Shown here piece after piece: positions 383 to 33,704 of a stretch of 64,000 nucleotides of DNA. The notes under the pieces were generated by a model. It was not told the origin of the DNA and searched no databases. It worked only from the letters and a program-made list of their open reading frames with translations. Origin of the DNA: Lingula anatina. Its lineage: Eukaryota; Animalia; Brachiopoda. The DNA lies in contig CM120648.1 of the NCBI GenBank assembly GCA_051362555.1, forward strand, positions 13,078,587 to 13,142,586, in the 5' to 3' direction. The number at the start of each line of letters is the position of its first letter. The stretch's first letter is position 1. Both the position numbers and the translations under genes were made by a program.

Positions 383-671
383 TTAGCCTGCCTCGAGTGT
401 TCCTCTATTCGCCTCCAGACGGTACACACTGACCAGTGAAGTAATAAAGGAGGTATATCACCACTTATTTCAGCCGAGCTTGGAGAGTTACGACTGACGA
501 TTACAATGGATCTTAGGTACAAATTAGAACTGGCTTAATAAACAATCAAGAAAAATCTACATATAACGTTTAGGGTAACTACGGGTCAGATATTTAACAT
601 ATATACACATACCCTATGTCAGCTGCTGCAACAGCCAAAAAGAACAAGATCAACATTATTTTGGTCTTCAT
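383..671 (-). CDS. Secreted peptide precursor D (divergent family member; exon 1 solid, exon 2 tentative)
   Basis: Exon 1 (671-613) encodes MKTKIMLILFFLAVAAADI-G, a signal peptide with the family MKT start, followed by a phase-2 donor GG|gtatgt as in genes A-C. Candidate exon 2 (428-383, after cttcactggtcag) gives VYRLEANRGTLEAG-stop, 34 aa in total. Alternative downstream exons toward the window edge cannot be excluded. Confidence 0.55.
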
Positions 672-847
672 CTTATTAGAGCTTTATCGTGGAATGATGT
701 TACGTGTTAGCAGGAGTGATAATATACCAGTAAGTGCTTACGTCATCGCATCCAGCCAGCTTACTGCTGATCAGGATGACACATAAAGAAATGTGATTTT
801 TTTCAGCGAGTGTTAGTTCATAGGCTAAATAAATGCGGATTTTTGTT

Positions 848-4333: not shown

Positions 4334-5607
4334 TAACCCCAGTCTCCCATAAAGTCAAGTAACGAGATGAGGTATATATTTATAATACATTCGAAGCTCA
4401 AATCAAGACACAAAGAATATAATATTGATACACTGAATCTTTGTTTGGTGGGTCACCGTACTATCCGCCACTGTGATAAAACCAGCTGACACATTCCACC
4501 AGACTTCATTTCTATTACGAGAGGCAAGCAGTTACTGCCATTTTAACTTCCTTACTTTAAGAAGTTCGGCAACAAATCAACCAGTAACAATATAGGCACG
4601 GTGCGATTTGTTAAACTAAACCAAAAGTTTACTTAGATTGAATGAAATATTTACTGGTGACATCTTTATACATGTATTATTATTTATAATCACATTGGCA
4701 TTTTTCTCTTAAAAATAACGGAAGTGTTGTCGGTTGACTATCAAAATGACTATACTTTACATATCATATAAGACAAGCTTTGACCCACCAAGCTACCTGA
4801 GAAATATTAAGTGCGCATGCTCATCAATAAAACTCGAGGTGAAGAAAGCATGGCGGATGGAGGCGATCGAAGGAAAAAAGCTCTTCTGTTCTATTATCTT
4901 TCAAAAAGGAGACGAAAAAGAAATGAATTGGCCCGTAGAGCAGCAATGAATCGTCTATCTACGGAGCTAATGTCACCAGAGATATTTACGGAGACATTCA
5001 TGGAGCCCCAGTAGACGGAGGAGGAGGAGGGCAGAATTTTTGCGTATGCAGTCTCGTCAGAGGGCGCAGTTCGTTCTGATGCTGATGTTTGCCTTGTTTC
5101 CTACGCCTGATCGAACTGGAAGGGGGGGGGGTTCACGATTTTGATCCCGATTCATAGCTGCTCTACGAGCCGATTCATTTCTTTTTCTCAGGTAGCTTCC
5201 GCATGGCGAACGGAGCCTAGATTTAATGACTGTACCCCGCAGGGACGACGTGTGGGGAGGTGTGTGAGAGGCGGAGAGACTATTAAAAGATTAGGCGGTT
5301 TTCCTCTCATGTACGTCTGCCAAATTTAGTCCCAGGATTTGTAAAGCCTGGCTCACATCGTTGTGAATGCGGTCTTAGTATACCGGTATAAGCGATCAGA
5401 ATTGATATCTTGGGAAAAGGGAAAGAGGAGATTGGGAGAGACGATCTTGGGAGCATGTAGAAGACGGACCTGGGGAATTCACTTAGAGTATGTAGCTACC
5501 GAGCGTCGAGGAAAAGATCATTTAACTGGTCATTCCTAGTATGTGGACTTAAGATGTGCCCACGTGGCCATGTAACCTTGGTTATCAAGTTCTTGGTCAG
5601 GGAACCT

Positions 5608-5770: not shown

Positions 5771-7092
5771 TGTGAAACCGGGGCCTGAAACCCCCTAAGA
5801 TTCACTGATTTATTCTAACTGAAGATTGTTTTTTAAAAGCTATTGCACTTACCGGCAGTTGTTAGTGCTAGGGCTAAAGGAAAACTTAATTGGGCAAGGC
5901 CAAGGGTAGATTATAGTCGTTACCGTTTATCAGAAAGGGATGAGGACCGTAATCCTTTTTACATCAGAGAGACATCACTGAAAACGCGCGTGTTAAAATA
6001 GTGTAGAGCTAGTGCAACATCTGAGGTATCTAAACATATTTTAATTAAAATTTTGACAACCCAGGTCATGAAACTGTTAAAAGGTGAATATATTGGACGA
6101 AGGACCAAGATTTCTTTGAAAGAGAAGTGAAGAGGGTTATTTGCATTATTTAAAGATTTACTGTTGATTTACTCTATAAAAACGTGATTTTTAGCCCTAT
6201 TTGGGTACAGTAACTTGCCCAGTGTATGGGACAGCCTGTTAGATTTTTTTGAAAGGGAGGGAAGGACTCGGTCCCTGGAACTTAAAATTCCTCTCCCTCC
6301 AGTGTCTACAGCGACATCTATTGGTAGTCCAGTAAACGAATCAAAAGTTATGTCGTGAATCAAAAATGTTTTGTTTCCTCGTTCTGAACAAGTCTCTAAA
6401 ATAGAAATAAACAACATTCTGACCGGTGAGTATAGCAATTGTTTATTTTCATTTCTATTTTAGAAAAGCACTATTCCAATTTATCAACGTTAGTTTTGGT
6501 CATTTGGTCATGATGATAGTATATTGAAATTACATTGTGTGTTTTTCATTTATGCTTAATTTGTTTTCTCTACAGAAAAAAAAATATTAAAGTATGTATG
6601 CAGCTTCCTTAATTAAAGCAGTACTATTCAACAAGTAACTTTCATGCCCTTTCCAAGATTTCTTCAAGAATGGCTTTCTAATAAGTGTCTCTGGTCAACA
6701 AGCTCTCCAGAAACTCATTCATAGGGCATCTGCAATAAAGTAACATACAATATCATAATGCAAATATGTAATAGAGCATAATAATATTTTGCAAAGGTGC
6801 TTATATATATATATATATAATTTTTTTTTTTGGGGGGGGGGGATAATTGATTATGAGTAAACATATTTTTTCCGTATGTACCTGGTATATACTCAGAACA
6901 AACCTGTACTGCCTTGTTTCTATTTTTTTCCTTTTGTTTTCTTGCGTCATTTAACAAGCACACTTAAAGACAGACAACGTGCGTTAGAGCATATAGGGAT
7001 AGATTTGAAGCAAAATATTAATCGAATTTGTGTCCCAGGATATTGTTTTTGATTGTAGATACTGTACTTATTCCCGTTGAAACTGGACTGTT

Positions 7093-10000
7093 TTAGCCTA
7101 CCGAATAAATAATTAGGAAACGGACGCCATGTATCTGTATTTCGATGATCAACGGAATTCTCTCACGCTTTCAACCAATCGCAATATTTCAGAGATAAAG
7201 TAACATGAATAGCGCGAGTCTCAAATAAGAAAGTCTTAATTAAAAACGTTTTAGAACTCCCAGCAGTTTAGAATAGGAGATACTTCGGCCATTATGGGAA
7301 ATGTGATGAAATTTACAAGAAAATTAATTTTTGGCTAAATAAAGGTCTAACGCGCTTTGTTTGTCTTTAATTTACTTATATAATCAGTAATTCGTGACAT
7401 GGTTAGACCGACGACCATTTACACCTTACCACAATCCGGCGAATATATAGTTAAACATCTGATAATATTCGGGGTTTCCACAGCCCGTTTGGCTTTGTTC
7501 AGGGTAGACTTCTCTGCAAGTGGTCCTCTGACATAGAAAGGAAATAATCGTTTTAATTTATAACTTAGCTTTACCTATATTATGGCGACCTTTGAGCATC
7601 CCTTGTGCACTGTTGCCACTTGTATTACTAGTATAAGTATATAGATGTTTGTCCATTTGTATGTAATAAAACAAATGCACACCAATGGATTTGTGAAGCA
7701 ACTGCATGAAAATGACAATGTTTATTTCTGCATTATCTAAGAAGATCAGGAAAAATATCTTAACGTATCTATCCCCCTTAGGACGCCACCTTTTCCATTA
7801 TCGGTTAATAACATTATTTTATATTATTGTGCATGTATATTTAACATTACAGATCGTTCATTATTTTGTTTCTAATCCTCTTTATCATTTTATTATTTGG
7901 TTTGATAAGTTACCAATTTTCAACCCCTTTTGATATTTATTTTAATTACAGTACTTTTTGGATTGATATATTACCTTGGAGAGGTAGGGTTGTCTGATGA
8001 GCTATCAATCAAATTATTGTAAATGCTAAATTAGCTTAACTGCTTCGATTTCAACTCACATAATATGGATTTTACTATGTAAAGGTTGAGTTAAAACTGT
8101 TACATGTATATTGCTGGCTTTGCAATTTCTATGTGGATTTAGGTTAACTTAACATTCTAAATGACTCACCGAAAGGTGTTAAGAGTGTGTAGTCATGCGG
8201 TCTCGATATTCTTCATGGGGATTCAGAATTTCACCGAGTATTGTACAACTTAGACCTTATCAAAATTAGGCAAAGACAGACAACCAAGAATTTACCTTTC
8301 CGTCCTCTGGTTGTCAACCGCACGTTTGATGACCTTCATTAGGGTACCCTCGGCAATACCTGGACGTCCTCTGAGGAAGAAAGCAAAAGAATTGTATGAA
8401 TTTACGACTAATATGACACCAGTTACTTCCGCCTAACGGACAACCAGCAGAGCATTGCATGGCCGCCTTCTGAATTGATGCTTGTAGCTTTTTAAACATT
8501 AAAAAATTTAAGCAAAATTTATTCAGAAGAACGAAAAGAAGCAAATTGTTTCTAGCTTTATATGCTCTTCTTAAGATAACAAAAATATATATTTTTATAT
8601 GAGTCGTATATACAAAAAATTAATAAAGATAAAAAGACAATTTAAAAATGAATAGAAACATCCATAACCAAATGGACATAATGCTTATAAACAACTAACT
8701 AGATAGATGAATGAATGAAGAAAGAACATCGATTGTACTATTTACACTCGAAATAAACCATTTTTCAAAATTGAATTTAAAAAATGATACCCTTCAAGTA
8801 CTTTCAACGTTGTTAAGTAGGAATGAACAAATATAATTTCATTATGTCCAACAGTGACAGAAACTGGGTTAAAATTCAAATTCGTTGGTCGAAATGTTTT
8901 GGGAGTGCGGAAGTATGTCGACGTCAACATTCTCTTGACGGATAAAGAAAAAATAATAAAGAATTGAAAAGAAAATGAAAGCAACAATTTTAGTGTGCCC
9001 CTGGATTCTCTTTGAATTACCTCATACCTTCACAATTGAAGCATTTGTCTATACAGTGTGAGCACTTATCCTATAAACACAGTGTATACATATATACTTT
9101 ACAATGTATTTATATTAGACGCTTGATCAATATTCAATATTTGTCTCACAAACACATAATTATATAACACAGAAAATTACAGAGCTTGCAAAAATGTATG
9201 CATGTACCATTTAAAAAATATTATTATCATTATTAATGTTTTTATTATTAACTGCCTATTTTGAGTGATCACAACAGCTGAAACGGGGCTTAAATGTCCT
9301 GAACGCAGTGACGTGACGCAGTTGTCGCCACCTGTGTGTTAAATGGGGCGAGCCCACATTCAGAACAACATACAGGTAGTTGTTAGTACATCCAGTACAT
9401 ACATAAAGGTTGGATGAGGGCGAACATTAAAAGCCTTAAAAGATGGAAAGACTGAACTGATAGGATTTACATCAAGATTTAAGATAAATAGGGGAAATAC
9501 AACGAAATCTAGTATTTTTACACTATATCTTTTTACGTGAAAGATCTGGGTGTCACTTTTGATAAATATGGAACTTTGGATAGACAGTCTCTGGAATGTC
9601 CAAGTCAGCATCATATTCACTCTGGCGATTTAGAAAGAAAAAAAAAGAAATGAGAAATGAAAAAAAAAGATATGTTTAGTACATTCTTTTATTACTTGTA
9701 AACTGGATTACTGAAATAGTCTCCTACATAGTTTAAGCAACCATTATTTGAACAAACTGCAATTATTTCAAAATTCTGTAACCAGGCTGCTAACAAAAAT
9801 GGGAATGAACAGTCGAGAACATGTAACACCTGTATCGACGTAACATTATTGAAAGAAAATTTTATTTAAAGTTCTATGTTACAAGGCAGTTACAAAAACA
9901 ACCCACTCTATATCTAATTTAGCCAAATCAGCAGGGACGGATTACTAGGTCTTCAACTTTTAGCCGCTTACTCTTAGAATGTACTGTTTTAGAGAAAAAA

Positions 10001-11335
10001 GCCTGGTAAATTTTTCGGAAAAATGGCCTCACAACTCTGGAACGGTTTACCGGCTCAAATAAAAGCAGCAGGTGACACAGGTTTTTTTTAAAGACACTTT
10101 TCAAGACTTACTATTTATTATTATTAATTATCGAGCAATTTTTAAACTTACGATCCTAGTATTCATAATTGACATATTTAACTCTTTAACTTAGATTTTA
10201 GATTAGTAATGAGCTATATATCTGTAGTATTATAACAAAGTTTGAACTGCTATTTTAGCTCTCAACTTTATCATTTTAAATCTTCATTGTAATGTTTGCC
10301 CTTTTATATTGTTTTAAATTGTAATACTTAGCTTTTTCATATATTACTACTTTAAACAGCTACTTTAAACAATTGTAAGGTGCATTGAGATTATAATGAA
10401 ATATGCGCCATATAAGAAGCAATTGGTATTTTTTATTATTATTATGGCTGTCAAATAAACTGATGCTCGGCACCATGTGAATCGTAAACCTTTTTTATTA
10501 AGTTAGTGTAATGGGTGAAATGTTTCATACCAGTGACAATCCTGTGGTGACGACTTGTAGTGGTCGTCCAAAGAAAACAGCAAGATATAAACCATGTAGT
10601 TTATTACTAAAGCTTAAATTCTAGTTTTCTGTTTAGATTACAGAGTTGATAAAATTTTGAATCTAATACATTTCATTTTCATTATAATTCATTTAAATCT
10701 ATTAGGGAATGTCTCACATTGTCCAATGTTCAAGCATTAATAATGCTATAGTGTTGTTTAATGTCACTAAATGTCTTCTTACCTACAATACTGTATATGT
10801 AGATAAGCATATGTCAAAGTTGCTCTGTATAATTGTTAAATCATAGCCTTTGAAAAGTGCTTATATAAAAATATCGTAATACAAGTGTTGTAGAAATAAC
10901 TTACTCTGCCCGATTGCCGACAGGCAGTTCGTCCGTGAGCCCCCACCTGTAAAAAAATATTCCAGATAAAGCTCACAGAAACTATACTGCTCAGTATGAA
11001 TTGCAGATACCAGAAGCGCGAATAGGGAAACCCAAAGGTGTTTCTCTCTACCGGAGGCCCTTCTAGCTGTCACAAATTTGGTTGGTGGATTTCGGCCCAT
11101 TTTTTGTCAGCTAGCTATATAAGACCCCTGGTATACAGTAAGGTCAGCTAGCTATAGGTAGACGAATAAAACAGCTTTACCAGTTACAAATCCGAAATTT
11201 GACTAAATAACCAATCGAATTAACATAAAAGCGGTATGTTTAAAGTGCATGTAATAACAGATAGAATAATTTTCTATAGACCTACCAAGCCTCAACAAAA
11301 GTAAGAATCATCATCAGCAACAGCGCGGTCTTCAT
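7093..11335 (-). CDS. Secreted peptide precursor A, 89 aa, 5 coding exons (signal peptide, KR sites, amidated two-Cys peptide)
   Basis: Exons 11335-11286, 10946-10905, 8370-8296, 7527-7430, 7097-7093. All introns are GT-AG with compatible phases (2,2,2,1); 270 nt, no internal stop. Translation: MKTALLLMMILTFVEA-WWGLTDELPVGNRAEGRPGIAEGTLMKVIKR-AVDNQRTERGPLAEKSTLNKAKR-AVETPNIIRCLTIYSPDCG*. Paralog B has the same exon structure. Confidence 0.82.
9360..10443 (+). mobile_element. 5'-truncated L2/CR1-clade LINE fragment in intron 2 of gene A
   Basis: Degenerate RT C-terminal motifs KTELIGF, VKDLGVTFD, LDY.NSLLH and EHVTPV; 3' end gcgccatataag followed by (tta)n. Also present in unit 2, so it predates the duplication. 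Confidence 0.8.
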
Positions 11336-11445
11336 TATTGTGCTATATCGCATAATGTATACGTATAATGTTATTTCTAAGGCGCAGTAAGGTGTATCTG
11401 TTTGTCAGGACAGCCCTGACCTGCAACCAGGCCAAGTTATTCAGA

Positions 11446-11456
11446 TACGTCACCAC
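11446..11456 (-). promoter_or_regulatory. CRE/ATF-like element GTGGTGACGTA upstream of gene A
   Basis: About 110 nt upstream of the A start codon. The identical 11-mer lies about 130 nt upstream of gene C (24695-24705), and TGACGTAA lies about 67 nt upstream of gene D (738-745). Confidence 0.45.
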
Positions 11457-11580
11457 TTATTCAACAGAAACATTCGGAAAAATTTTGCGATTTAGGTACG
11501 ACTTATTGATAATTTACCTACATACATCTTTGACTTAAGTACCTGCAGAAAGGGGAAAAGTGAGAATTGTTGCATTATCC

Positions 11581-12926
11581 CGGTGTAACAGTAATCCAAG
11601 TCCCCCAGGAACCGAGGTCCTACATGGGAATGGTATTCCCACTGGGACTTACACCCCATTTCCATAGATTAGATCAACCTACTTTGGAACGACCTAACTC
11701 CATGGGGGTTCGCGCTGAATAGCTGTCAGCCGGGCGGACACGAAAGTTAATTGCCCCTTACGGCTTGTAGTGGGCGGGGACGGACACTTAAGGGGGATTA
11801 TCTGACGGTAGTCTGGTGAGACTCCCCGCGGTGATAGATCGATCTAAAGCTGTGGGAATAGACCCTTAGGTTCCTGGCTCATAATTATAGTAGGTAGAGC
11901 TTGTATTACTGGCGGACTTTTATTCCTGTTACATTATAACAGTAATGGGCGTCCGGCCATTTGAAAGTCCTACCCCTATGCAATAATACGGTTAAATGAT
12001 ACAATTACAAATGTATATGAAAATCATTCTGGTGAGCCATATATAAGACAGAAAATGAAGGGTTTGCAACTTCAGCTCGTCGGTGTAGGGGTTAACGTGC
12101 CCTGTGACATCCTTAGGTTCGAGACCTACCTTTGACGTGACCTTGCTCCCCTCCCCCTCCATCCCCCACCTTGCTTTAGCTACTGATGTTTTTAATGTAT
12201 AATATTCTAAATTCTGTGATTATTAAACTTACTACTAGTTTTTTTGTTTTGTTTTTTAACTCAAAGCGCCAACATAGCAAAGGAATATAACAGAATATTA
12301 TATATAATTTCAAATTCTACACTGTCTTGATTTGCCTTATATCCAAGAGCAAATTTCCATTGGATTTAGGGTTATTTTTCAATTTCTGTTAGTGTAAACC
12401 GAAAAATTAATCTAAGAACAGAGATCCCGTGTTTTGTGTAAAGTGATATTCCCCTCATTTGAAAGCCTAAGTAGGTCAATGGCTCATACAAAACTATGCG
12501 TATACTACAAGAAAAATACACAAAATAAAATTAATGAAGGAAAACTATGGGAACCGTGTTGCTTTTGTTACTTCATTAATATGTATGTAAACTGCCTATC
12601 GGAACATAAAAACATCGTAAAGTATTAAAATAAAATGAAATAAAGCAAACCTTTATTATATCTTTAAATCTAGCATATCTCTATATCTATTTATTCATGT
12701 CATGCCTCGGTGTAAACTATATAGGACATGCATTACTAAAATGTTAGGAACGCACGTCCCATTAGGACGTGCATTACTTGGAAGCCCTCGTCCTACGGAC
12801 ATTGAATCCTAGTAACGTATGTCCTAGGACCTCCATTCCTAGCAATGCATGCCCTAGGACTTGCATTCCCAGGACTTAGTGTCCGGGCGGACTTGCGTTA
12901 CTAGGACGTGCATTCCTGCCACCCCG
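11581..12926. mobile_element. Non-autonomous DNA transposon with TIRs, internal short tandem repeats and a nested MITE
   Basis: Left end cggtgtaacagtaatccaagtcc matches the reverse complement of the right end (cggggtggcaggaatgcacgtcc). Degenerate taggac.tgcatt.c repeats at 12720-12915. Absent from the equivalent site in unit 2 (about 22540). Superfamily not assigned. Confidence 0.7.
11655..11868. mobile_element. MITE of about 210 bp, copy 2 (nested)
   Basis: Same sequence family and orientation as 4121-4333. Confidence 0.75.
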
Positions 12927-13317
12927 GGGTCCTTTATTTTAGAAACCAGGGGTCTTTGAAATACCAGGTCCCAGACTCGGATACACGGTAAGTTTGCATA
13001 GGGTTTTAACGATTATTAATTACTTTAGGCAAGTCCAAGTAACTACTGATGTCCACATTTGTTAACATTCAATATTAACATGCACAGCAAGATCAATTCT
13101 GTAGATTTCCCTACAGCCCCTCAAACAAAAATCAGCACAAACGCTTTTTCTCCGATTTATTTTGTTAAAATGACTTCATGCAGTTTTGTTCTGAACGAGG
13201 CTCTTGAAATATAATTTGACAACAACAATCTGGAGTGTGTGTTGCATAATTGTATATTTTATTTTATTTATTTTCTTTTCCAATTTGGAAAATACTAATA
13301 AACAGAATTAACAATGT

Positions 13318-13366
<49 letters not shown>

Positions 13367-13682
13367 AAACAATATCGTTGAGAAGTTTATAACGATATTT
13401 AATTCCATATACACCTTATCAAACATAAAAGTGAGAAAAGAATGTAGTGCAAAGGTGAAAGATTCTGGTTTTCTCTACATAAACAATAGCACTACAAACA
13501 ATGAGCATGATATCGTTATGGTAGAAATATCATGAAAAATGTAAAAAGAATATTATGACAAAGCTGCATTTACTATTACTATTGCACGAAATGCCTACGG
13601 TGACAAGTGCTTCAGGCTTGTAGATTCTTCATTTTATAACTATTTGAATATATCTGAGCAGAGTTTAAAATACGTTTATTAC

Positions 13683-13969
13683 CAAACCCTATTGCCGATA
13701 GGCAAATATTCCTTCTCGCTGTCACTATCCATTATGTCACAATGGTTCTCGTTTCTCTTCAGCTTTCGAGCACTGGCACTTTCAAATTTCTCTCTACCGT
13801 CTGTACTGTCATCAGTTTCCCTGTATATCGGTTTGCCCCAGCTACCACGTGGATTTTCTCTCAGATACACTTTCTGGTCTTCTGATTTTTTTCTTTTGCT
13901 CGGTTCGCTTTCGCTATGTTAAGTGCTCACATCCGTAAGACTTATGACAGGCAGCGCCGGTGACTGCAT
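13683..13969 (-). pseudogene. Decayed exon related to precursor exon 2
   Basis: The frame ends ...RKLKR...KEYLPIGNRV-W at a phase-2 donor (cf. exon 2 ELPVGNRA-E at a phase-2 donor). It has an in-frame TAA. The duplicate at about 23285-23553 is frameshifted and has lost the donor. Confidence 0.45.
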
Positions 13970-13976
13970 CGTTCAG

Positions 13977-14111
13977 GGCTCCGTTACTCGAAAGCATAGC
14001 GAATTGCGAATAGCGATACCACCTTTTATTTCGAGGCTATTATATGGAGACAGCAAATCCCGAGACGCTTGCGCTCTGTCGCAATTCGCGATGCTTTCGA
14101 GTTACGGAGCC
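13977..14111. mobile_element. 135-bp PIF/Harbinger (Tourist)-type MITE
   Basis: TIRs of about 33 bp (ggctccgttactcgaaagcat... / ...atgctttcgagttacggagcc) with a 3-bp TSD CAG. The empty site is visible in unit 2 at about 23560. Confidence 0.85.
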
Positions 14112-15569: not shown

Positions 15570-15817
15570 ATTAACACCACACGCGTGCTGCTTCTGGTAG
15601 TTACGGTTCTTGAGGCCTAGTAGGTCTCCGCATCTCTCCTAAGTCACAATTACATGTAGTTCTTTTAAATGGTTAATCAGTCTTTAGGTTTATAGAAATA
15701 AAGATTTTCTAACCGTCTCCCTTCACCATATTCGGGTCTCTTAAAACTTTCGAAAAATTTTCACCTATGTTTTGTCTTAACAGGTGGGGGCTCGGTGAGG
15801 CACTGCAAGAAGGCGGA
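15570..15817 (+). pseudogene. Pseudogene copy of peptide precursor C (exons 1-2 only)
   Basis: Aligns to 24835-25115 but has ATG>ATT, the split Trp codon TG|G changed to TA|G (stop), and the exon-2 donor GT>AT. No exon 3 was found before the duplication breakpoint. Confidence 0.8.
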
Positions 15818-17626: not shown

Positions 17627-17790
17627 CTGGACGAGCGACCTAGAAAAACTAGACAAAAAAACAGTCCAGGCCGAGTTAAGGAGATGGGTTTGACCCGGGG
17701 CAAGATAGGTAAGGTAGCGAAAGACCGCGAAGAATGGCGTCACCGTGTCGCGACCCTAGTTCCCAACAGGGAAGAGGGGATACGTAAGTA
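17627..17790 (+). mobile_element. RTE-clade LINE 3' fragment
   Basis: Encodes GRATx..VQAELRRW/EMGLTRGKIGKVAKDREEWRHRVATL across frames, resembling RTE ORF C-termini. Absent from unit 1. Confidence 0.65.
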
Positions 17791-18099
17791 ATATACTAGG
17801 TGAACAAAAAAAGCCAATAATAAATCGAAAAATGGTCATAATTATCTTACTCAAACCAATTATGAGTAAACGGCTTTTTCCATATGTACCGTGAAGATAC
17901 TGAGAACAAACCTGTGCCGTCATACCTCTATCTACTTCACTTTTGCTATCTTGTGTTATTAAACAAGCACATATAAAGACAAACAACGTGCGTTAGACCA
18001 TTGTACAGGGATAGTTTTGAAGGAAAGTGTTAATCACATTTGTATTGTGTGATCTTATTTTTGATTATCCATTCTCACACCCATTGAAACTAGACTGTT

Positions 18100-21000: not shown

Positions 21001-22274
21001 CCGGGTGAAATAAAAGCAGCGGATGACAGAGATTTTTTAAAGACATTCTTAAAGACTTACAATTTATCATTATTAATTATCAAGTAATTATTAAACTTTA
21101 AGATCCTAGTATTCATAATTGACAATATTTAACTCTTAAACTTAAATTTTAGATTATTAATAAGCTATATATCTGTAGTGTTATAACGAAGTTTAAACTG
21201 CTATTTTAGCTCTCAACTTTATCATTTCAAATCTTTATTGTAATGTTCATTTCAAATCTTTATTGTAATGTTTTGTTCCTTAAAATTGTTTTAAATTGTA
21301 ATACATATATTTTACATATATGTAGCTATTTAAAACTATTGCAATGTGCATTGAGATTTTAATGGAATATTCGCCATATAAGAACTAATCATTATTATTT
21401 TTATTATCAAATAAACTGATGCTCGGCACCATGTGAATCGTAAACCTTTTCATTAAGTTAGTGTAATGGTTGAAATATTCCATACCAGTGACAATCCTGT
21501 TGCGATGACTTGTAGTGGTCAAAGAAAACAGCAAGATATAAACCATGTACTTTATCATTGAAGCTTAAATTCAAGTTTTCTGTTTAGATTACAGAGTTGA
21601 TTAAATTTTTAATCTAATATATTTCATTTTCATTTTAAATCATTTTAAATTCGTCAGGGGACGTCTCACATTGTCCAATGTTCAAGCATTAATAACGCTA
21701 GTGTTGTTAAATGTCGATAAAGTCTCCCCACCTTCATTATAGATAAGCACATGTCAAAGTTGATCTGTATGATTGTTATATCATAGCCTTTGAAAAGCGC
21801 TTATATAAAAACATCGTAATACTAGTGTTGTAGAAATAACTTACCTTGCCCGACTGTTGGCAGGTAGTTCTTTCATGAGTCCCCTGTAAAGAAAAATATT
21901 CCGGATAAATCCCTCAGAATTTATACTGCGTAGTATGACTGCAGCTACCATTAAATGAGGAATAAGGAAACATGATGCTCGTGTACTCTCCACAAGAGGC
22001 CCTTCTAGCTGTCACAAATTTGGTTGATGGATTTCGGCCATTTTGTGTCAGCTAGCTATATAAGACCCCTTATATACAGTAAGGTCGGTTAGCTATAGGT
22101 AAACGAAGAAAACAGTTTTATCAGTTACAAATCCGAAATGACTAAATAGCCAATCGAATAAACATAAAAGCGGTATATTTAAAGTGCACGTAACTACGGA
22201 TAGAATAAATTTCTATAGACCTACCAAGCCTCAACAAAAGTTAGGATCATTAGCAGCAGAAGTGCGGTCTTCAT
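18100..22274 (-). CDS. Secreted peptide precursor B, 88 aa (89 with the alternative acceptor), 5 coding exons
   Basis: Exons 22274-22225, 21883-21845, 19562-19488, 18643-18546, 18104 (or 18107)-18100. All introns are GT-AG with phases 2,2,2,1. Translation: MKTALLLLMILTFVEA-WGLMKELPANSRARVRPDITKDIIMKVFRR-AVDNQMMERVPLAERSSLKKSKR-ALETQNFQRILGRCPPSC(V)G*. Confidence 0.82.
19222..19436 (-). mobile_element. 5'-truncated RTE LINE in intron 3 of gene B
   Basis: RKLQYFVHVARH..MGKVQGTHRRGRQKLTWMDDIKSWT matches the RTE C-terminus. It has an (ATGG)n tail and an 8-bp TSD tacaactt (19214-19221, 19437-19444). The empty site is in unit 1 at about 8245. Confidence 0.85.
20325..21405 (+). mobile_element. L2/CR1-clade LINE fragment in intron 2 of gene B
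   Basis: Duplicate of 9360-10443; motifs VEDLDVTFD, LDYCNSLLHGL and EHVTPVL. Confidence 0.8.
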
Positions 22275-24834
22275 TAACGTGCTATATCGCATAATGTATA
22301 CTTGTAATGTTATTTCTAAGGCGCAGTAAAGTGTATGCATAATGCAAGTCAGCCTCGAAAGCCCTGACGTCTAACCAGGCCAAGATATTCAGATACATCA
22401 CCACTTATTCAACACAACATTCGAAATATTTTTCCGAGTTAGGTACGACTTATTGATAATTTACCTACATAACTCTTTGACTAATAAGTGCCGGGTACCG
22501 GTACCTGTAAAACAGGAAAAAGTGAGAAATGTCCTATTATCCAGGGTCCCGATATTTCAGAAATCAGGGGTGCGTGAAATACCAAGTCCCGGACTCGGAT
22601 ACATGGTAAGTTTTGTATAATGTTTCAGACTTTAGGCAAGTACAAGTAACCACTGATGTCCACATTTATTAACATTCAATATTATCATGAACAACAAGAA
22701 GATTGTAGTTTTCCACCGCTTCAATAGCCCCACAAACCAAAATCAGCACAAACACGTTCTTGTCTGATTTATTTTGTTAAAATGATTTCGTGCAGTTTTG
22801 TTTTGTTTTGTTTAAAAACATAACTTGACAACAACAATCTGGAGTGTGTGAAGCGTTATTGTATATTTTGTTTTCTTCATTTTCTTTTCCATTTTGGAAA
22901 ATACTAATAAACAGAATTAACAATGTAAAATGAGAGAGAGATAGGGGGAGAGAGATGGAGAACAAACAATATTGTTGAGCAGTTTATAACGATATTTAAT
23001 TCCATATACACTTTATCAAACATTTAAATTAAAAAAAAAGAACGAGTGTGAAGCTGTAAGATTCTGGTTTTCTCTACATAAACAATAGCACTACAAACGA
23101 TGTGCATGATATCGTTATGGTGGAAATATCTTGAAAAAATATGAAAATAATATTATGACAAATCTGCATTTACTATTACTATTGCGCGAAATGCCTACGG
23201 TGACATGTGCTTCAGGCTTGTGGATTCTTCATTTCATAACTATTTGAATATATCTGAGCAGAGCTTAAAATGCGTTTATTCCTAAATCCTATTGCCGATA
23301 GGTAAATATTCCTCCTTTCTGTCAATGTTCATTATGTCAGAATGTTTCTCGTTTTTCTTCAGCTTTCGAGCACTGGCACTCTCAAACTTCCCTCTACCGT
23401 CTGTGCTGTCATCAGTTGGCCCAGCTACCACGTGGGTTTTTTCTTAGATACGTTTTCTGGTCTTCTGATTTTTTTTCGCTCGGTACGCTTTCGTCTCCCT
23501 ATGTTGACTGCTCACATCCGTAAGACTCATGACAGGCAGCGCCGGTGACTGCATTGTTTAGGTGTCTGCGTATCACGTGACACAACAGTAGCTCCACCCA
23601 TTCCATAGCAACTAGGGTGGAGTCAACCAACAGTATTCGCTGTGGTTAACAACTGAAAAAATGTAATATTTTCGAGGGAATTTTTATTGTTTTTAATAAG
23701 CAGAATTGTAAATAAAAAATAACAATAATATGCACGAAAAATTCTTTTTATTGACGATAATAAAGGGTTATAATATCCTTAAGACTATTTCCTTCATGCT
23801 TAAGACCATGTTAGAGCAAGTCTGATCTGAAAATGAAGATTAACACCATTCCAGAGTCACTTGTGAGTGCCATTAAAGACCTGAACTAGTAACATTTTAT
23901 GTATTTCCACACAAATAATAGTACTAGTGTTTGTGCTGTTTTAACTGAAAAGTATAATGCAATGTTATTTTATGCACTATAATCATTATTTACATTTTTG
24001 TATTTTCAGTGTGTGAATTTAAACTTTCATGGACCTAAATTTATATTCCATTTGTCCTTGTCACCAGTTACGTATGATTAAAATTTGTTGATCATTGTGG
24101 TCTTAAGCATTGTTTATTATTGTTTCAAAACTGACAAAAGGACCGTTTTGTGTATCTTTATTTTGTTTTAATATCTTTACTGCATGATGCTCCAATGGTC
24201 GTGATAGTTGTACCACGGTTGCTAATTTTTATCATATAACAAAATACCAGATACATATTTGTCCCGTTTGTAGATTAATGAAATACTGGAAATGCACATT
24301 TACTCTTTGTGTGTGACAGGTCATTAGTTAGATGACACGCACAGTCTATTTATTCGTCCAAGGTAAGCAAAACAAACTGGGCGAACTTATATGTGCAGTA
24401 AGATTGTAAATGCATTGTTTTTCTTTTCCTCTTGTAACTGACTTACACGTGATTTTTTTCTTTTTCTTTTGTTATCTTAAGGAAAGCATTTGCCTCCTTA
24501 CAAATGTAAATTGAAGTTACCAAACTTTTTGTCTTCTTTAAATTTTGCCTTACTATTTGCCTTCTTATCTTTTTCTTGAATTAACTTCGTATGGGAACTT
24601 AATAGAGAAAAGTCGAAGTAACCAATTCACGATATTTTTCCGAGTGACTAATTACAAGCTAGATCGTCTGGCAGTTTCAGCAACTGCTTACTACGTGGTG
24701 ACGTAACTATTGGGCTCGGCCTGATAAGCTGCGAAATAGGTGTGAGGGTTATGTAAGCTGGCGTCACTTACCCAGCTACTAATACATTGTAACTGCAGTT
24801 TGGATACAGCATTGTCTTACGATACAACACGAAG

Positions 24835-27800
24835 ATGAAGACCGCACTCGTACTGCTACTGGCATTTACGGTTGTTGAGGCTTGGTAGGTCTCTATGAAA
24901 TACTCATACCTGCATTTTTTATAAACACTTCTCTTCTACTTCTACGTTTAAGTTCTTTTAAATGGTTATTCAGTCTTTTCAGATTTATAGTGAGAAAGAT
25001 GTTCTAACCGTCTCCCTTATTTCACCATACTCGGGTGTCCTTAATCTTTCGAGAATTTTTCACCAATGTTTTCTGTTAACAGGTGGGGCCTGGACGAGAC
25101 ACTACAGGACGAAGAGTAAGTTGATAACAAAAAAAGAAAAAAGGATTTTAAAGGATTCTAAAGGTCCTAACCTTTCTAACGATTATATATTACAATCATG
25201 TAATATATTCTGAGGGTAAGAGGATCTATGGGTACAGTCGGTAATACATGTTTATTCTCGGTCATACGACTTGGTCTTCCCAGTAGTCTATGGGCCACTG
25301 TAGGCCCCATTCCCCTTAGTGATTTTCGTTCACTATGTTTTTCTGATAGCTTTTATTTCCTGCTTGTTTGCAATTAAACTGGTGGTGGGTGTGAGTGCTG
25401 CAGCTGTTGCTACCTGTATGGTAACGTCTGGCATTAAAAATTGAGATTTCTGAGGCCAAAAATCTTTGATATTTCAAATGCATTAAATAAATGGATTTCA
25501 AAATAAAGTATAGTTTAAAAGCTACGCTACACTTCACGATCCTCAAAAAATTCCAAGATGGCAGGCAAATTCAAGATGGAGGCCAATTTTAGCTGGTTTT
25601 TGAGTAGTTTAAATTATTTTTGATATTAGTGTGTTTTTTTTTTTTCAATTTTTAAGGAATCGGAATGTGAGATATGTTTTGACGTAACAGAATAGCAGAA
25701 AGTCTCTACTTTATATTTATAGTGTTTGTTTAAGGTGAAACCTTTTAAATTTGATGTAAAATCCTGAAATCTAAGATGGCTGCAACAAAATGTCTTTCAT
25801 TATGGCCGCCAATATGCTTTTGCACACTTGCTAAAATTGATGTATTATATTATTCCAACAAAATATTAATTTTAATTATCTCAAACTAACTTAGTCCAGT
25901 TAGTGATTTTTATTTACTATAATTTTCTGGGAGCTTAGGTTCTAAACATTTATTTTCTGCTTGTTTGCCATTAAACCCTCGGTTGAATTGAGTATCAGAG
26001 CTGTTGCCATGGTAATATCTGGGGTTGGAAATTTATTTTTTAGAGACAAAAATAATTAAACATTTCAAATGCATCAAAATTCATGGAATTCAAAATCATT
26101 CCAGATGTGTGGTTTTAGAAATGTTATATATCATTAAAATTTTCCAAGATGGCAGCAAGTGCAAGATGGTGACAAATTTTTGCTGATTTTGGAATGATTT
26201 TTTTTTAATATTTGTGTTTTGAATTAATTTCATAATTAATTATTTAAATGCAATGCGTCATATGTTTTGATGTATAATAGCGGCAAAAAGTCTCTGCTTT
26301 CTGCATAAAGTGCTTGTTTAAGGTTCAACCTTTTGATTTGTCGTAAAATCCTGGAATCCAAGATGGCTGCCACAAAACATGTCTTTAATAAACGGCTGTC
26401 CCAGCTGAAAAGATGCCACATTAATCATTCCAAATTACATCCTTTATTACTTTATCTTGCCATTTTCAATGAAATATGTTCATTAGGTTATGTATTTAAG
26501 ATTTGCTGCAACCTCTGAGACTTTGGGTTTTTAAAAATGTAAGATGGTCTTCATCTATATGACTAAATGGAATAAAACATTTACATGTATATGCAATAAT
26601 TCCTTTTCATACTGCTAGGGAAGTAAAATAATGTCCACATTTTGGAAAAATCAATATGTCCACTAACTACAATTCAATAAATAATTTAAATTAATTTATA
26701 TGATACTTTACATAAAATATAATTCTATAAAAATGCAAAATTACCATCAATATTTGCAAACCAGTTACCTTTCACTGAAAATCAGACTATTTTTTGCCCT
26801 TCAACTTGCCCAATAGGTGGAAGAGGGATCCAATAATTTCAACCATCTGTGATAATCTACCAGTAGATTTTGGTAGACCAGCTTGAGTTAGTACAAATGT
26901 TCAAGTTTTTGGCTTCATATTATTCATTACATGAAAAGATAATAATAATAGCAAAATAATTAAATAATAAATAAAGATTGAAAGAAGGCAGTTTTGGAGA
27001 AAAAAACGTAGTCTACAATATTTGAAGTTAGAACAGCAATGTGAACCAAAAAAATCACCAAGGATTTGTTGGGGCCATTTTGGATTTCAAGTTTTTTGTT
27101 CTTAAAATGATAATTATAGGAGTAACAATAACTACATGTATAAGCAGTAAGTAAAAACCAAATACCATATAAATATCAAAATACTTAACATTTTTCGATC
27201 CCAATGCTATTTTTTGAAAGTTTCAACATAAGCTACTAACAGTAGGAACAGGTTAAGAAATCAGCTAAAATCGGCCGCCATCTTGAAATTGCCGCCACCA
27301 TCTGAGATGATTAAAGAAAGTTTTTCCATCATAAATTACCACAAAAATAAATGTGTTAGTATTTCAAATAAGTTAACATTGTTATTGAAATTAATATGTT
27401 TAAAATGTTTGATGTTTTCTTTGTCTCAGAAATGTCAGTTTCTAAACCCAGTGTCACTATGGCAATGGTCACACCCACCACCAGTCTAATGGAGAACAAG
27501 CAGAAAATAAAATTTTAGGACGTAAGCTATATATAACAGTAAATGAAAGTTGCTAAATGGGGGTGGGTGGGTTGGATCAGCTTAATAAAATCGATCTAAG
27601 TAACGTTCTTTTGAAATATTCCATCAATTTAAGCCAGAGTGTATCATATATGATAGTATACAGAAGTATATTGACTCAAATGTATTCTTTTCCATATCAA
27701 CTGTGAGTGACTAGCATGTACATGAAACTTAAGGCGATTTCTTAGGTGAAATGTAAGTGACTTGCATTTATTATGGGTTTTATAAATGTGTCTTCAGTCA

Positions 27801-30800
27801 AGTCTTTGGATTTTGTTGACCATTGGCCGCCATCTTGGAAAATTTTGGGGATCGAAAAGCATAGTGAAATTCTTAGACTACACGTCTGGAATGATTTTGA
27901 ATTCCATTTAGTTAATGCATTTGAAATATTTAAGATTTTTGGTTTCAGAAATTTCAATTTTAAACCCGTGCGTTACGGCTGCAGCACTCAAACCCATCAC
28001 CAGTTTAATGGCAAATAAGCAGAAAATAAAAGCTTAAGACCTGAGCTATCAGAAAAACATAGTGAATGAAAATCACTAAAAGGGGGGCTGTTTCGGTATT
28101 TGGCCCATAGACTACAGCAATCACAGAACTTGCCATCGGAAATCAAGGTTAATTTTTCTTATGGTTTTCTTGCGACTAATATATATGAAGGTCAAACTGT
28201 CATCAAAAGGCGTTTTTCAAAGTCCATTTTAACCGTAAGACTAGTTAAGGCAGGTCACTTTACCATGCAATAGTATATGTAATAGTTTATATACATCTTT
28301 GCAGAAGACAGGGTCAAGTAACGCCCTGTATAGGAGGTCCGTCTTGCGGTGGTATTGGAATCACTTCACTTCCTAACTCTAATAATCCCCCTTTTCTCTT
28401 CCTCAGAGGAGCACGACGTATTAGCGAGGGTATCGTCATGAAAGTCATCAAACGTGCAGTTGACAACCAGGAGATGGAAAGGTAAATAGCTGGCGTAGGA
28501 ATTGTAATTTTGATGTATGTATTATTTTTTATTTTTTTTTTTTTTATTATTTTATTTTCATAACATTTCGATAAATTTATACAAGTTTGTATAATTTAAC
28601 CCAGATCCACTAAAATCAGGCGTTGTTTGAAACACCAGTTATTATCAAAGTTTAACCTAACTTCAGCATTGTACAATCCAAACGGTATATATATCCACCT
28701 ATATTATCATTATTATTAAAATGTTAAAAATGCAAACATCACTGAAGAGCAGTTGTGGATTTAGGGGGTATCAGGGGGTCCTGAACCCCCGTATGGTTTC
28801 TGAAAAAAATCATAGAAATGGCCCCCTCTTGAAATTAGAATTTTGACCAGCTGAATCATATTTCTAAACCGTACCATCGTGTTTGAACTAGTGCCCCTTG
28901 ATCAGCTGCAGCCTCATACATGTATTTATACTTTTCACCTGATGCTTTCATTTTGGCTGTTACAAAACTGTAGTTTAACCTTCAAGCGAACTCCGAAACT
29001 CAAAGCCAGACTAACTATCTAACCCTTAAAACAGAACCTCCTGACAGCTTAAAGCTCGCGGCAGTCGGCAAAGTGAATGTGGTTTGAGCCACACATCCTG
29101 ATGTGGGCTTCTGCTGAACAAAACAAGTTTTGAAAACAGTATGACTATCCCACCTACTTTAAGCCCGCAGACATGAATGTTCTAAAAGAGGGATGGTCTC
29201 TCGCCTGTTCATTAGGATACAGGCATGTTTTATTTGATGTTTATAATGTGTGTTCAAGAGATATCGCACAGGGTTTTCTGGAGTAAGAGCGACTAAGCTT
29301 CAGCGTGCTAATATGCCCAATATGGGATTAAGGAGGGAATGTAGGTTTGAGATTTTTCTCTTAAAATAAAGGTCTTGGCTTTTTTATTCCTGTCACATTC
29401 ATTTAACGTATCTTCAAAATATGTAATTTTGCTTGGAACACAGCTTTAACTTCATCGTGTGACGTAATATTGGGATTTTGGGGACAAAAACACCATTTTT
29501 ATACACCTGATTTTCTCAGGCACCTGGACAGCTATAAACTTGCTTTTGATGTCATTATGACACTTGAACAAAGTACTACAGCATGGAGTCAGGGATTTTT
29601 CTTCAGACACTTATTGTTGAGTTTATCTATAAAAACGTGAAATGACATCAAAATATTAGGGAATTTTCACTTTCAAAGTCTATAAATTAGAAAAGAGAGG
29701 GTCAATCAAAATTTCTTAAAAAGCACTTTTAGAGCATACTGTTCATAATTAGCATGGTGAATTTGGTCTCCCTGGTGTACAGGTAGATAGTTAAAGCTTG
29801 TTAAGATAACGCTATCTCGTCAATATTGAAAGCAAAGAAAACGAGCAAAAACCCTTTCAGTGAAGTTAATTGTCCTATAAGCAAATAAAATTGTTGACAG
29901 CTTTACCTGTTATCGTTCTGACGATCGCGAAGATGGGTACTCTTTTGCCGGTTGAAATTAGCTTGTTTGCATGTATTTGGATGTCAGAAAATCTTATTTT
30001 TGTATCAATCTCACCTCCTGTTAGTAACTTCAAGGGGTTACCGCTAGCACTGCCAGAATGATTGACAGGCAATCAAGTAAGCCCTAATGACCCAAGCAAT
30101 CAGTGGCCACGTCAATTGCCGTCGGGGCAAGTGTTAGGGATGCGCTCTAGGATATGCACACAATAGCAGCATCGCATGCGGTCTTGTCCACATTCGCCAA
30201 GCGAAAAATGGTTCGAAAACACGGTCGTGTTACAGGACGCCGATCGGACCACCAACAACAAAAAAATAGACGCAACCAGAAAGGCTTTGTTAGAGGAAAT
30301 GTCTAAAGTTGGGTGAGTCAGGAAAAATTCTGCGATAATTTTTGAAGAAAAAAAAACAATATGTCGGCCTTTAAAGTGCGTACATGAATCCAGAACTGTA
30401 CCTAGAATTGATGCTAAGGCTAATTCTTAAGCTCATAATTCGGAGTCTAGCGATATCATTAGATTTATTTGCTTTACTTTCTTTAATGCACATGTATTGA
30501 ACCTATGCGCCACCCAGTGAATAATTATGCTAGGGTGTGGGCTCAAGTCTTGTATTTACGCAAAACAATCTTGTGTGTTATTCCAGTATATTCCATACAG
30601 GTGACTTTAATAAGCAGAGAATTTCTTTATATTCCGTGAAAAATACACTAAATTTATATAAAATAATATCATGGTTGGCCAAAAAATGTACGCACAGTGC
30701 ATCCGTGCGTATGCCTAGTTACCCCCATGTATATTTTTAAAATCTAACACTAAACTGCATCGACCTGTTGGCGAAAATAGATAGAAAGAATGACGATTGT

Positions 30801-33704
30801 TGTCACGGGTAGCAAGCAACGGAATTTTCTTCTTTTCTTTTGGGTATCTCAAAAAGTTAACAAGAAAATCGAAAGAACGCGTGTAACAACAAGCAATATT
30901 CAAGGGAGAACGAGTATTTCGAGCAAATCCAATGTGTCGGAAAAGATTCATCTTAGCGCTGATCACAATCAAGAGAGACTATCAAAACAGCTTAAGCGGA
31001 ACAATAGGCACTGCTTTGCCGATCGCTGTTTATGACAAAGGGGGCATGGCGCATCCCTGTTCTATTGTTTCCCTAGACGTGCTGATGCTGCTAAGGTCCG
31101 CCCACCGAGTTTACCCATGCCAACGGCCCTTGACAACGAAGGCGGGGCATATACCAGGCCACCGCTGTCGATGTGTGCAGCATCAGAATAATCAGAAAAA
31201 ACAAATTTTTTGTTCAAAATGTAAAAATTTTATTCTGTTAAACGTTAAATACACGTTTAATTAATAATTAGACATAAAAAACCAAAAATGGCTATTTTTA
31301 GCTATATTTGGGTACATCCGCTCCTTAACGGATGCCTCACGTGTTTCTTAAAGTAACTTGGAAGAGTTTTTTTTTTTTTCGTACCACTGCAAAAATGTAA
31401 TGGGCACTTAGATAAAGTCCATGTTTTTGCTGAATGTCGTTGACAAATTAAAAAGTAGCTGTTTTGCATAACGTTCCTTATAAGGTCACGTTAGTTCACG
31501 TGAAATGTTCTCAAGGAGCGTGGGAATAGGTGTTAGATGTTTTTGTGACCGCGTGATTTATTCAGTGCTGTCATCGTTGAACTTTTGGTTCATATGCAAA
31601 CGTCATAACGACGTTACCTTGTCATGCCATTATACGTGTAAATTAGTGTGTACTTATTTTCTGTTCTTTTTTTTTATATATTATCAGTCTATACAGTTCT
31701 GTAACCCGTTCCATATTTTCTTTCATCTATGTTATACATTGTTGTTTCTTACTGGTCGATTGTTCCCACCCTCGAGTTTCTTTGTCCATGTAAGCACGGG
31801 ATTCAAATGACTGCACATGCGCGAAAGTGCGTTGTTTGAAATAAACAAGTTGATGAAATTGACGAAGTCTGCCACTGTTTACAGTCTGGTTGATTTAGTT
31901 TAATTTGCTTCCTGGTGTCGTTTTGAGAAATTATATTGGAAATATTCTGTTGGTTGTATGTATTAAAAAGTAAAGCCATCGGACTTTCCTTAGAATAACA
32001 TTTATTTTGCCTTTATTGTGAGGGGATTCCATTTGTATTTATAGTGTTATATATGGCCCCAAGGGAATTTTCCACCACTCCCCCACTCTTGATAAGGACA
32101 TAAGGACTTGATCGTTGACATGTGCGTTAGTTTCAAAGAGCAGCTCCCGCACACCTGGGGGTACTAGATAAAATCTGAACACCAGGTTTATTGATGAGCT
32201 AGAGAAACAAAGGAAGAATTTTTCCTGCAGAGTTTTTGGGTTTGACAAAGCTTACAAATTTGCAAAAAGTTTTGCGTACAGACGCAGAACTTGCTTTTCA
32301 AGTTATAAAATGATAAATCGTTTAAATTATTTTATATGTCAGATGAAATAACCTTCAAAAACAAATCCTTAACACATAAACGAATTAGGATTACGGACCA
32401 TTTTATTACAGCAGTTCCCAATTTTTCTTTAATATACCCCTCTTTTTCTGTTTTTCCTCAACACGTTTTCTTCCATGAAAGTAATGCCTATGCATACGCA
32501 TGCTTCAAGATACCCTGAGAGCAATTACTTTTATTGATGTTCGCGACCGTGTTTGAACTCAATTGTTAAAAAATATTGATATTTAACGTCATTTACAAAT
32601 GCCAATAATATAACCCCATGAAATAAATTAGATATATTGAAAAATATGAAAGCTCACCAAGACGAGTTTGATACCTGTTTTTACCTGGCTTGGGAAGTGC
32701 AGCGGTGCATAATTAACAGGTTTTATTGTTAACGATCTCTTGGTCAACTACAATGCATTTAAAATGCATCAGCAATTAGTAAGCTGCCAACTGACAGTTA
32801 ATCTGAAAGACTATCAGCTTTTGATATGATCTAAATCACCTGAGGTGACCATGATCTCATCGCATCGCAACTATTGTCACCGAAGTTACTAAGTCACGGA
32901 ACACCGTCACGGACAAAGAAAAGATTGTGAACGAGTGCTGCAATTTTGGTGAATCCCACGGCAACACACTGAGGCATAACGAAAATTGCTCAACTCCGTT
33001 CAACACAACTTTCCTAAACTTCTCTGCCTGTATGCACTTGCAGCTCAGTTGAGTCTTATAAATATATGTTGACCTTTATCCTCATTGTCGTCACAGTACC
33101 ACGTGACCCCGATCAGTTGCTTCATTTATGCATATTGAGGTGAGGTTTACTGAAACGCTTTTTGTCTACTAATAGTTGTTTTTATAATTTTTAAATGGCG
33201 GGGATCGATTAAAACATAACTGTAGTGTATAGATTAAGTGCTGGATCTTCAGAATTCGAGAAATGGATTTTTATATGACTATTGTCCTTTAACCCTGTGT
33301 CCTTTGGATAACAACTAATACAGCTATAGGGTGTGTCCTGTTGTGTATTTTGATATCGAGCTTGTATAATTATTTCACTAGCTTTTTAAGACAATTTCCT
33401 GAATGTTTGTTTTAAGATAAGGTTTGAAGCCTCATATATAAAACAAAATTCCTGTCCTTCCCATACTAATAGAAGTCCATAGAATCATTCAAATCACACA
33501 GGAATAAAACCGAATGAAACACACTCTAATGTTGCACATTCATTGCTTGGAGAAGCCCTATCACAAATGTTCTCCAACAGCTTTACTGTCACATAAATAG
33601 AGCGTTCCATATCATTTTTCAGGTCATGTCCAAGGTGCATCACCAAGGAAATCATAATGGAGGTTATCAAACGTGCGGTTGACAACCACAAGATGCAAAG
33701 ATAA
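24835..33704 (+). CDS. Secreted peptide precursor C (exons 1-3 solid, 3' end tentative)
   Basis: Exons 24835-24884 (MKTALVLLLAFTVVEA-W), 25083-25115 (WGLDETLQDE-E) and 28407-28481 (GARRISEGIVMKVIKRAVDNQEME-R), all GT-AG and phase 2. A further exon-3-like exon at 33623-33704 (SCPRCITKEIIMEVIKRAVDNHKMQR*) is in phase and is followed by AATAAA at 33751. It may be the terminal exon of C or an orphan relic. Confidence 0.62.
25284..28114. mobile_element. Academ-like non-autonomous foldback element in intron 2 of gene C
   Basis: Termini TAGTCTATGGGCCA / TGGCCCATAGACTA with a 3-bp TSD CAG (25281-25283, 28115-28117). Imperfect inverted arms several hundred bp long are built of repeated units rich in CAAGATGGC. 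TAG..CTA ends with a 3-bp TSD fit Academ. Confidence 0.75.
29328..31328. mobile_element. Kolobok-like DNA transposon of about 2 kb (coordinates include TTAA)
   Basis: Left ttaa-ggagggaatgta matches the reverse complement of the right end, ttaa-ggagcggatgta. TTAA TSD with GG..CC termini; no intact ORF. Confidence 0.55.

Follow-up and report, generated by a model that had tools for sequence, protein, structure and literature searches.

Does a scatter of very short exons in the genome of the brachiopod Lingula anatina encode a family of secreted peptides, and what would such peptides do? The question is raised by a 64-kb stretch of contig CM120648.1 (assembly GCA_051362555.1, positions 13,078,587 to 13,142,586; ~36% GC, no N), which we call the window and to which all counts and copy numbers refer. 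We found that positions 383-33704 of the window hold a tandem cluster of four related genes (A, B, C and D) and one relic (Table 1). Judged from their sequence, these are most likely real genes. We put a probability of roughly 45% on their encoding a family of secreted prepropeptides whose products would be released at body surfaces and act there as fast-evolving effectors, defensive or ecological, instead of serving as classical neuropeptides.

In A and B, four coding exons join in frame without a stop, and introns 1-3 are phase 2 with GT-AG borders. Across the cluster, exons measure 33-98 nucleotides (nt) and every internal intron is phase 2. Both genes open with a hydrophobic leader of 16 amino acids (aa) that has V-E-A at its end and is followed by two dibasic sites (KR and KR in A, RR and KR in B). 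We judged leaders by Kyte-Doolittle hydrophobicity and the V-x-A rule; the best leader 8-mers of A, B and C reach 3.16-3.4, and small residues occupy positions -3 and -1. An alternative in-frame ATG lies 18 nt upstream (11353 in A, 22292 in B), and the leader may be 22 aa if it is used. The two features generally looked for in a prepropeptide are thus present: a hydrophobic N-terminal signal, and dibasic sites that are conserved across the paralogs, D excepted. An earlier inspection of the letters alone (the sequence-only reading) had proposed these exon chains, splice borders, in-frame joins, leaders and paired dibasic sites for A and B, and all were recovered, as were its additional members C and D and its pseudogene. 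The two 18-mers that it quoted both fall wholly inside exon 4. Upstream, A (11542-11518) and B (22504-22465) have in common a candidate short 5' non-coding exon on the minus strand with a strong acceptor and a GTAAAT donor; the supposed next acceptor after it in A, at 11377, scores a very poor -12.7 bits.

The remaining members are variations on the same plan. Gene C has a frame of 79 aa, with an AATAAA at 33751, 47 nt beyond its stop; a profile search up to position 64000 found no further exon-4-type exon for it. Exon 1 of gene D was detected by an nhmmer exon-1 model not trained on D (E 2.4e-9), and its alignments to exon 1 of A and of C were each equalled in 0/1000 shuffles. Intron 1 of D aligns with intron 1 of C from donor to acceptor AG (3/1000 shuffles) and also with that of A (0/1000). 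Its exon 2 resembles exon 2 of the others weakly (150, 279 and 198 of 2000 shuffles). Gene D is without a dibasic site, and neither AATAAA nor ATTAAA occurs in the 382 nt between its exon 2 and the window edge. The relic has no start codon, is interrupted by a stop in frame where exons 1 and 2 join, lacks a GT donor past exon 2 and is missing the later exons. Donor- and acceptor-like sites on the plus strand that lie upstream of both the relic and C are kept in both duplicates (12981/22599, 14919/24357 and 15527/24792) and could mark exons of the 5' untranslated region; since site 22599 lies within ~100 nt of B's upstream acceptor, a head-to-head overlap of the two transcription units is possible.

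How did the cluster grow? Self-comparison showed that a pair of head-to-head genes was duplicated in tandem as a 10-11 kb unit, with A and the relic in one copy and B and C in the other. The plus-strand gene was severed after exon 2 by this duplication. Between A and C, blastn gave three matches over 5.2 x 9.6 kb, each confined to exon 1 with intron 1 or to an exon of the exon-3 type. The duplicates show more conservation than chance would leave: in a neutral simulation at A-B intron rates, 54 of 20,000 runs kept the ATG, the frame and the six splice dinucleotides. Differences in exon length are all multiples of three, as against 11/35 intron indels. The signal peptide is under purifying selection, with 5.5 of its 7 A-B changes synonymous (proportions of nonsynonymous and synonymous change, pN 0.04 and pS 0.46; binomial on 5 of 7, p 0.013). 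In the last peptide, 18/54 nt differ and 8/18 aa are identical (pN 0.37, pS 0.22), a divergence that exceeds both introns 1-2 (12%, p 3e-5) and intron 3 (17%, p 0.013).

Some features of the duplicated unit are worth recording in their own right. A-B divergence climbs from 5' to 3', from 0.12-0.13 in introns 1-2 through 0.17 in intron 3 to 0.21-0.22 after exon 4, and gene conversion has possibly acted over the 5' half of A/B. In the spacer between the divergent genes, a block (13535-13940 and 23135-23560) is ~90% identical between the duplicates and contains a charged 79-aa frame (13918-13679, minus) with no Pfam match; this block could be either a shared regulatory element or a transposon relic. 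Intron 2 of A and of B holds a relic (9420-10150 and 20380-21100) that we take to resemble the 3' end of a reverse transcriptase from an element without long terminal repeats (LTR), a non-LTR element; the single frame checked had no Pfam match. It is older than the duplication.

Within each gene, a second kind of duplication would account for the repeated cleavage sites. A profile of exon 4 matches exon 3 of A, B and C (E 9.5e-7 for A exon 3 with flank, 0.0053 and 0.031), and R-A, preceded by K or R, is invariant in 6/6 exon-3/4 modules. Exon 3 ends at AG/GT; the corresponding position reads AG/AT in A exon 4 and in the last exon of C. For the Cys tails of A and B exon 4, the alignment with the intron that follows exon 3 of A was equalled in 0 and 1 of 2000 shuffles. 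On this alignment, exon 4 reads as a duplicate of exon 3 minus its splice donor, so the Cys tail would likely derive from former intron. We propose that the symmetric 75-nt exon 3 would have been duplicated with one cleavage site per copy, and that a copy losing its donor would read into the intron and so acquire a new C-terminus, as in exon 4 of A/B, the last exon of C and probably exon 2 of D. As an account of the sequence, this conversion of intron into C-terminus has good support in A/B, can be seen directly in gene C and is tentative for gene D. A broader version holds that this is a brachiopod-specific family of secreted effectors in which a symmetric cleavage-site exon is duplicated, and in which donor loss with intron recruitment has repeatedly made new C-termini, some with disulfide loops or glycines for amidation, three times in this one cluster; we regard it as a proposal with somewhat worse than even odds.

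How A and B end bears directly on what they would release. In both genes TGT G closes exon 4 and GTAAGGTGTAA follows, a sequence compatible with three endings (H1, H2 and H3 in Table 1). We weighed them by judgement, using splice matrices built from 15 acceptors and 12 donors of the window, nine of each from these paralogous genes. Reading through exon 4 to C-G-K-V (H3) is our tentative first choice, at a little under even odds. In both genes an ATTAAA follows this stop, 48 nt on in A and 88 nt on in B, within a 19-nt block identical between the two; such poly(A) hexamers occur 3.1 times per kb per strand in the window. Read-through is favoured also because the last exon of gene C ends by donor loss with its own AATAAA close behind.

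The sequence-only reading had instead spliced A and B to a final 5-nt piece (H1), giving Cys-Gly-stop and amidated peptides with a single disulfide, which we consider doubtful. The piece itself is present in both genes, and several details speak for it: GN-stop follows only 8 of the 442 acceptor-like AGs in the window, the AG in A is the first acceptor-like AG past the donor, both AGs of B's tandem acceptor lead to Gly-stop, A and B have the same GTAAGG as donor, and gene D likewise ends Gly-stop. The agreement between A and B is not independent, because they are duplicates. Against this model, the acceptor is weak at 3.6 bits (as low as 3/15 reference acceptors in leave-one-out scoring), compared with 7.5 and 8.4 bits at the sites farther downstream, and the donor that H1 and H2 would use is also weak (4.7 bits, top 6.8%, with equally good sites 3.8 times per kb per strand). 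The proximal CAG of a CAG-TAG acceptor pair is normally preferred, and in B it would give C-V-amide instead. As for amidation, a Gly-stop at the peptide end is one of the three candidate endings in A and B; the D model has one and gene C does not. Splicing to the stronger downstream acceptors, for D-A-L in A and G-A-V in B (H2), ranks last of the three and is unlikely.

From established knowledge of the secretory pathway, signal peptidase would cut after V-E-A (A-A-A in D), a convertase of the PC1/3 or PC2 type would then cut after KR/RR, and a carboxypeptidase would trim the basic residues, leaving two or three short peptides. Cuts after V-E-A and at KR/RR yield predicted products of 26-29, 21-24 and 9-18+ residues; the D product would have 17. 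Over 10 such products, net charge lies between -3 and +3 and isoelectric point (pI) between 4.4 and 10.3, with a hydrophobic moment of up to 2.05. The KR/RR-bounded copies within one precursor are 21-29% identical. Cys spacing is C-x7-C in A, C-x3-C in B and C-x2-C in the middle product of C, with no Cys in D. The last peptides of A and B have two Cys each, so the single disulfide proposed for each peptide is possible; the first Cys stands at residue 10 in A and residue 14 in B, and as these positions are non-homologous there is no conserved disulfide framework.

What, then, would the peptides be for? The precursor reading has its basis in the exon chain, the phase-2 introns, the conserved hydrophobic leader, the dibasic sites, the duplications and the one relic; the effector role is one that we infer, because the tandem copies, the relic, the conserved signal with variable cargo and the KR/RR sites match the birth-and-death pattern of mussel myticalins. 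As described in PMC5577615 and PMC12294457, myticalins and modiocalins of mussels are lineage-restricted, were found without homology, and lie in clustered genes with pseudogenes. According to these papers, they share with A-D short secreted precursors, a conserved signal and variable cargo, share with A-C a KR/RR site, and have optional Gly amidation, as A, B and D may have. The differences are as clear: mature myticalins have a pI above 11 and over 10% Arg, compared with our mostly neutral or acidic products; they have one dibasic site plus a C-terminal extension that is anionic, where A/B have two dibasic sites; and their coding sequence spans two exons with a phase-1 intron, against four or more coding exons and phase 2 in A-C. 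We found no sequence similarity between myticalins and A-D.

Other secreted peptides share parts of the layout. Spider venom linear-peptide precursors (cupiennins, latarcins) also pack several peptides with short spacers into one precursor (PMC7889660). The stretch after KR here ends x-M/T-E-R, which follows the letter of the processing quadruplet motif (PQM) rule (Arg at -1, Glu at -2 to -4; PMC7889660); as this E-R sits on an exon junction (AG/), the match may reflect splice consensus. Unlike in the spider precursors, the spacers here are not strongly acidic and the products not highly cationic. We know of no venom system in brachiopods. Conotoxin-type prepropeptides resemble A-D in their conserved signal exon, basic-site propeptide, variable Cys-bearing C-terminal peptide and tandem copies. 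For conotoxins, neuropeptides and secreted proteins, PMC13542836 reports a bias towards a phase-1 first intron, whereas this intron is phase 2 in A-D. Spiralian proneuropeptides (vasotocin-neurophysin, allatostatin C, prohormone-3) likewise combine a signal with KR-bounded peptides; unlike them, A-D lack both a multi-Cys or neurophysin domain and a conserved ligand motif, and matches to them span 5-6 residues in unrelated contexts. Conotoxins are classed by Cys framework, and no framework of the conotoxin or defensin type is found here, the Cys pattern differing between the closest paralogs A and B. The label of toxin, antimicrobial peptide (AMP) or neuropeptide that the cluster was first given fits in so far as the architecture is that of secreted dibasic precursors, and it reaches no further than architecture.

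Several observations weigh against the effector reading and the exon history behind it. Charge is unlike that of a typical AMP, with pI >10 in 1/10 products and an acidic pI (4.4-4.9) in 5/10, and the first products of A and B differ in charge, from -1 to +3. The paralogs have no Cys framework in common. The divergence of the last peptide is not clearly above that of its own 3' flank (21%, p 0.056), and replacements among post-signal A-B changes (38/46) are not significant (p 0.17); we reject positive selection as proven on these two values. The match between Cys tail and intron is significant in 2/8 comparisons, the other six, with introns of B and C, being equalled in 743-1964 of 2000 shuffles. 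The splice matrices are small and family-derived.

Secreted reproductive or pheromone peptides, or mucus or shell-matrix additives with no antimicrobial or deterrent role, would have much the same appearance, and among explanations of function this is the leading alternative, albeit an improbable one. Rapid divergence, a conserved leader and low charge are equally suited to gamete or water-borne signals. Lingula shell proteins were chosen partly for signal peptides and tandem duplication (PMC4595640). No motif match was found in the shell-protein supplements, a weak negative in that the table gives accessions, not sequences.

Slightly behind it, and also improbable, we place a lineage-specific neuropeptide or hormone family in which repeated KR-flanked copies act on G-protein-coupled receptors. 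A signal followed by repeated KR-bounded units is the proneuropeptide layout, and the low net charge suits ligands better than membrane-lytic peptides. Lineage-restricted neuropeptides are reported from brachiopods, nemerteans and phoronids (PMC8557429). Against this, the products have no common C-terminal motif and the copies within a precursor are as dissimilar as given above, replacements dominate between recent paralogs, the genes are several and tandem with a relic beside them, and no motif matched among Lingula precursors in the supplements searched. The weakest rival, that these are mostly decaying copies, with C and D or all genes unexpressed and the lost donors marking pseudogenisation, can point to the missing family donor in the last exon of C and exon 2 of D, the lack of a poly(A) signal within 382 nt of D and one plainly broken copy, and is very unlikely given that frame and splice sites survived in A and B across ~12% intron divergence, that signal pN is far below pS and that gene C has its AATAAA.

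Is the family already known? Each of our protein queries covered one exon (23-41 aa), a length at which distant relatives may escape detection. Neither A exon 4 with six upstream codons, set against proteins of 73-2000 aa (5.8 billion proteins; no candidate), nor a six-exon alignment against the same 5.8 billion (680 candidates, none with E up to 10) found a homologue. A phmmer search of 1.84 billion representatives returned two matches, one to a protein with WD40-like repeats and the other to a low-complexity repeat protein; we rejected them, as 13-28 residues aligned to repeats. The best PDB match had E 0.56 and Pfam gave no family for 8/8 exon peptides of 23-35 aa, both with the low power of short queries. 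The best ESM Atlas score, 0.90, fell on bacterial clusters and was set aside (recognition 1281, below the 2300 mark), and a degenerate exon-3 pattern had no match in the metagenomes of the Joint Genome Institute (JGI). Exact motifs of 4-6 residues, searched in the supplements of PMC8557429, PMC6425005, PMC13425148 and PMC4595640, had no relevant match in brachiopod or Lingula neuropeptide catalogues; the searched portion of the large file of PMC6425005 included no Lingula entry. Short likenesses to vasotocin-neurophysin (KRAVET, hagfish vasotocin precursor) and prohormone-3 (VEAWG, ant prohormone-3), and those to allatostatin C and the frog Rana box, were rejected as chance matches. Genes A-D are missing from a protein collection that includes the neighbouring Lingula kinase, and literature searches turned up no brachiopod-specific secreted peptide family of this kind. 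A survey of Lingula immune genes by Gerdol and colleagues, reportedly from about 2018, could bear on novelty. In line with the earlier remark that the peptides were not recognised as any known family, the protein, family, structure and supplement searches gave no homologue.

Table 1 Exons, candidate endings and rearrangements of the peptide gene cluster (positions within the window).
Feature	Position	Strand	Remarks
Gene A exon 1, coding part	11335-11286	minus	50 nt; 16-aa signal; GT-AG
Gene A exon 2	10946-10905	minus	42 nt; phase 2-2
Gene A exon 3	8370-8296	minus	75 nt; phase 2-2; first KR site
Gene A exon 4	7527-7430	minus	98 nt; second KR site; Cys-bearing last peptide; putative exon-3 duplicate without the exon-3 donor
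Gene A ending H1	7097-7093	minus	candidate 5-nt piece, C-G-stop; acceptor 3.6 bits, top 9.4% of AGs
Gene A ending H2	6729-6719	minus	candidate, C-D-A-L-stop; acceptor 7.5 bits, top 1.65%
Gene A ending H3	7429-7419	minus	candidate read-through, C-G-K-V-stop; ATTAAA at 7371
Gene B exon 1, coding part	22274-22225	minus	50 nt
Gene B exon 2	21883-21845	minus	39 nt
Gene B exon 3	19562-19488	minus	75 nt; RR site
Gene B exon 4	18643-18546	minus	98 nt; KR site; Cys-bearing last peptide
Gene B ending H1	18107-18100	minus	candidate; CAG-TAG tandem acceptor, C-V-G-stop (proximal, 4.2 bits) or C-G-stop (distal, 3.6 bits; piece 18104-18100)
Gene B ending H2	17518-17508	minus	candidate, C-G-A-V-stop; acceptor 8.4 bits, top 1.1%
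Gene B ending H3	stop 18537-18535	minus	candidate read-through, C-G-K-V-stop; ATTAAA at 18447
Gene C exon 1 (signal)	24835-24884	plus	50 nt
Gene C exon 2	25083-25115	plus	33 nt
Gene C exon 3	28407-28481	plus	75 nt; KR site
Gene C last exon	33623-33704	plus	82 nt; second exon-3-type copy; AT at donor position, stop directly after
Gene D exon 1	671-613	minus	59 nt; signal peptide; phase-2 donor GTATGT
Gene D exon 2, predicted terminal	428-383	minus	Gly-stop where other genes have the exon-2 donor
Relic	15570-15619, 15784-about 15817	plus	copy of C exons 1-2
Tandem duplication of head-to-head gene pair	~6354-15905 copied at ~16139-25207		self-comparison; blocks 70-86% identical

The window has further features. 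A large minus-strand exon (41650-40262) matches Lingula anatina LOC106154991 with 88% identity across 86% of the query, the sole other match being tubulin at 27%. It is the first large exon of a multi-exon protein kinase gene at 35000-41700 (minus), whose Pfam Pkinase pieces reach E about 3e-6, under the curated cutoff. Its kinase-domain exons are only 60-80% identical to LOC106154991, which, beside the 88% of the first exon, suggests a paralog or mosaic copy; the LOC106154991 record carries a precomputed PF03953 domain. At 54368-55845 (plus), two long frames of 287 and 211 aa lie next to each other. A PHD finger (E 6e-7) stands at the end of the second, and the pair may represent a single gene, interrupted by a frameshift, within a mobile element. 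Fragments at 55867-59652 (minus) and at 50200-50900 and 52900-53030 (plus) are presumably akin to THAP9/P-element transposase and Pif1-type helicase; 0/3 transposase-like frames had a Pfam match. Long inverted repeats at 25283-28115 (in intron 2 of C), 39313-42243, 13976-14112 and 4914-5187 are consistent with miniature inverted-repeat transposable elements (MITEs) or foldback elements.

Together, the comparisons indicate a real and apparently undescribed sequence family with a precursor layout of a well-known kind. If expressed, its members would be a source of defined peptides that are easy to synthesise and come from a phylum so far under-sampled, and the cluster would be a clean case of new bioactive peptide ends arising from intron sequence.

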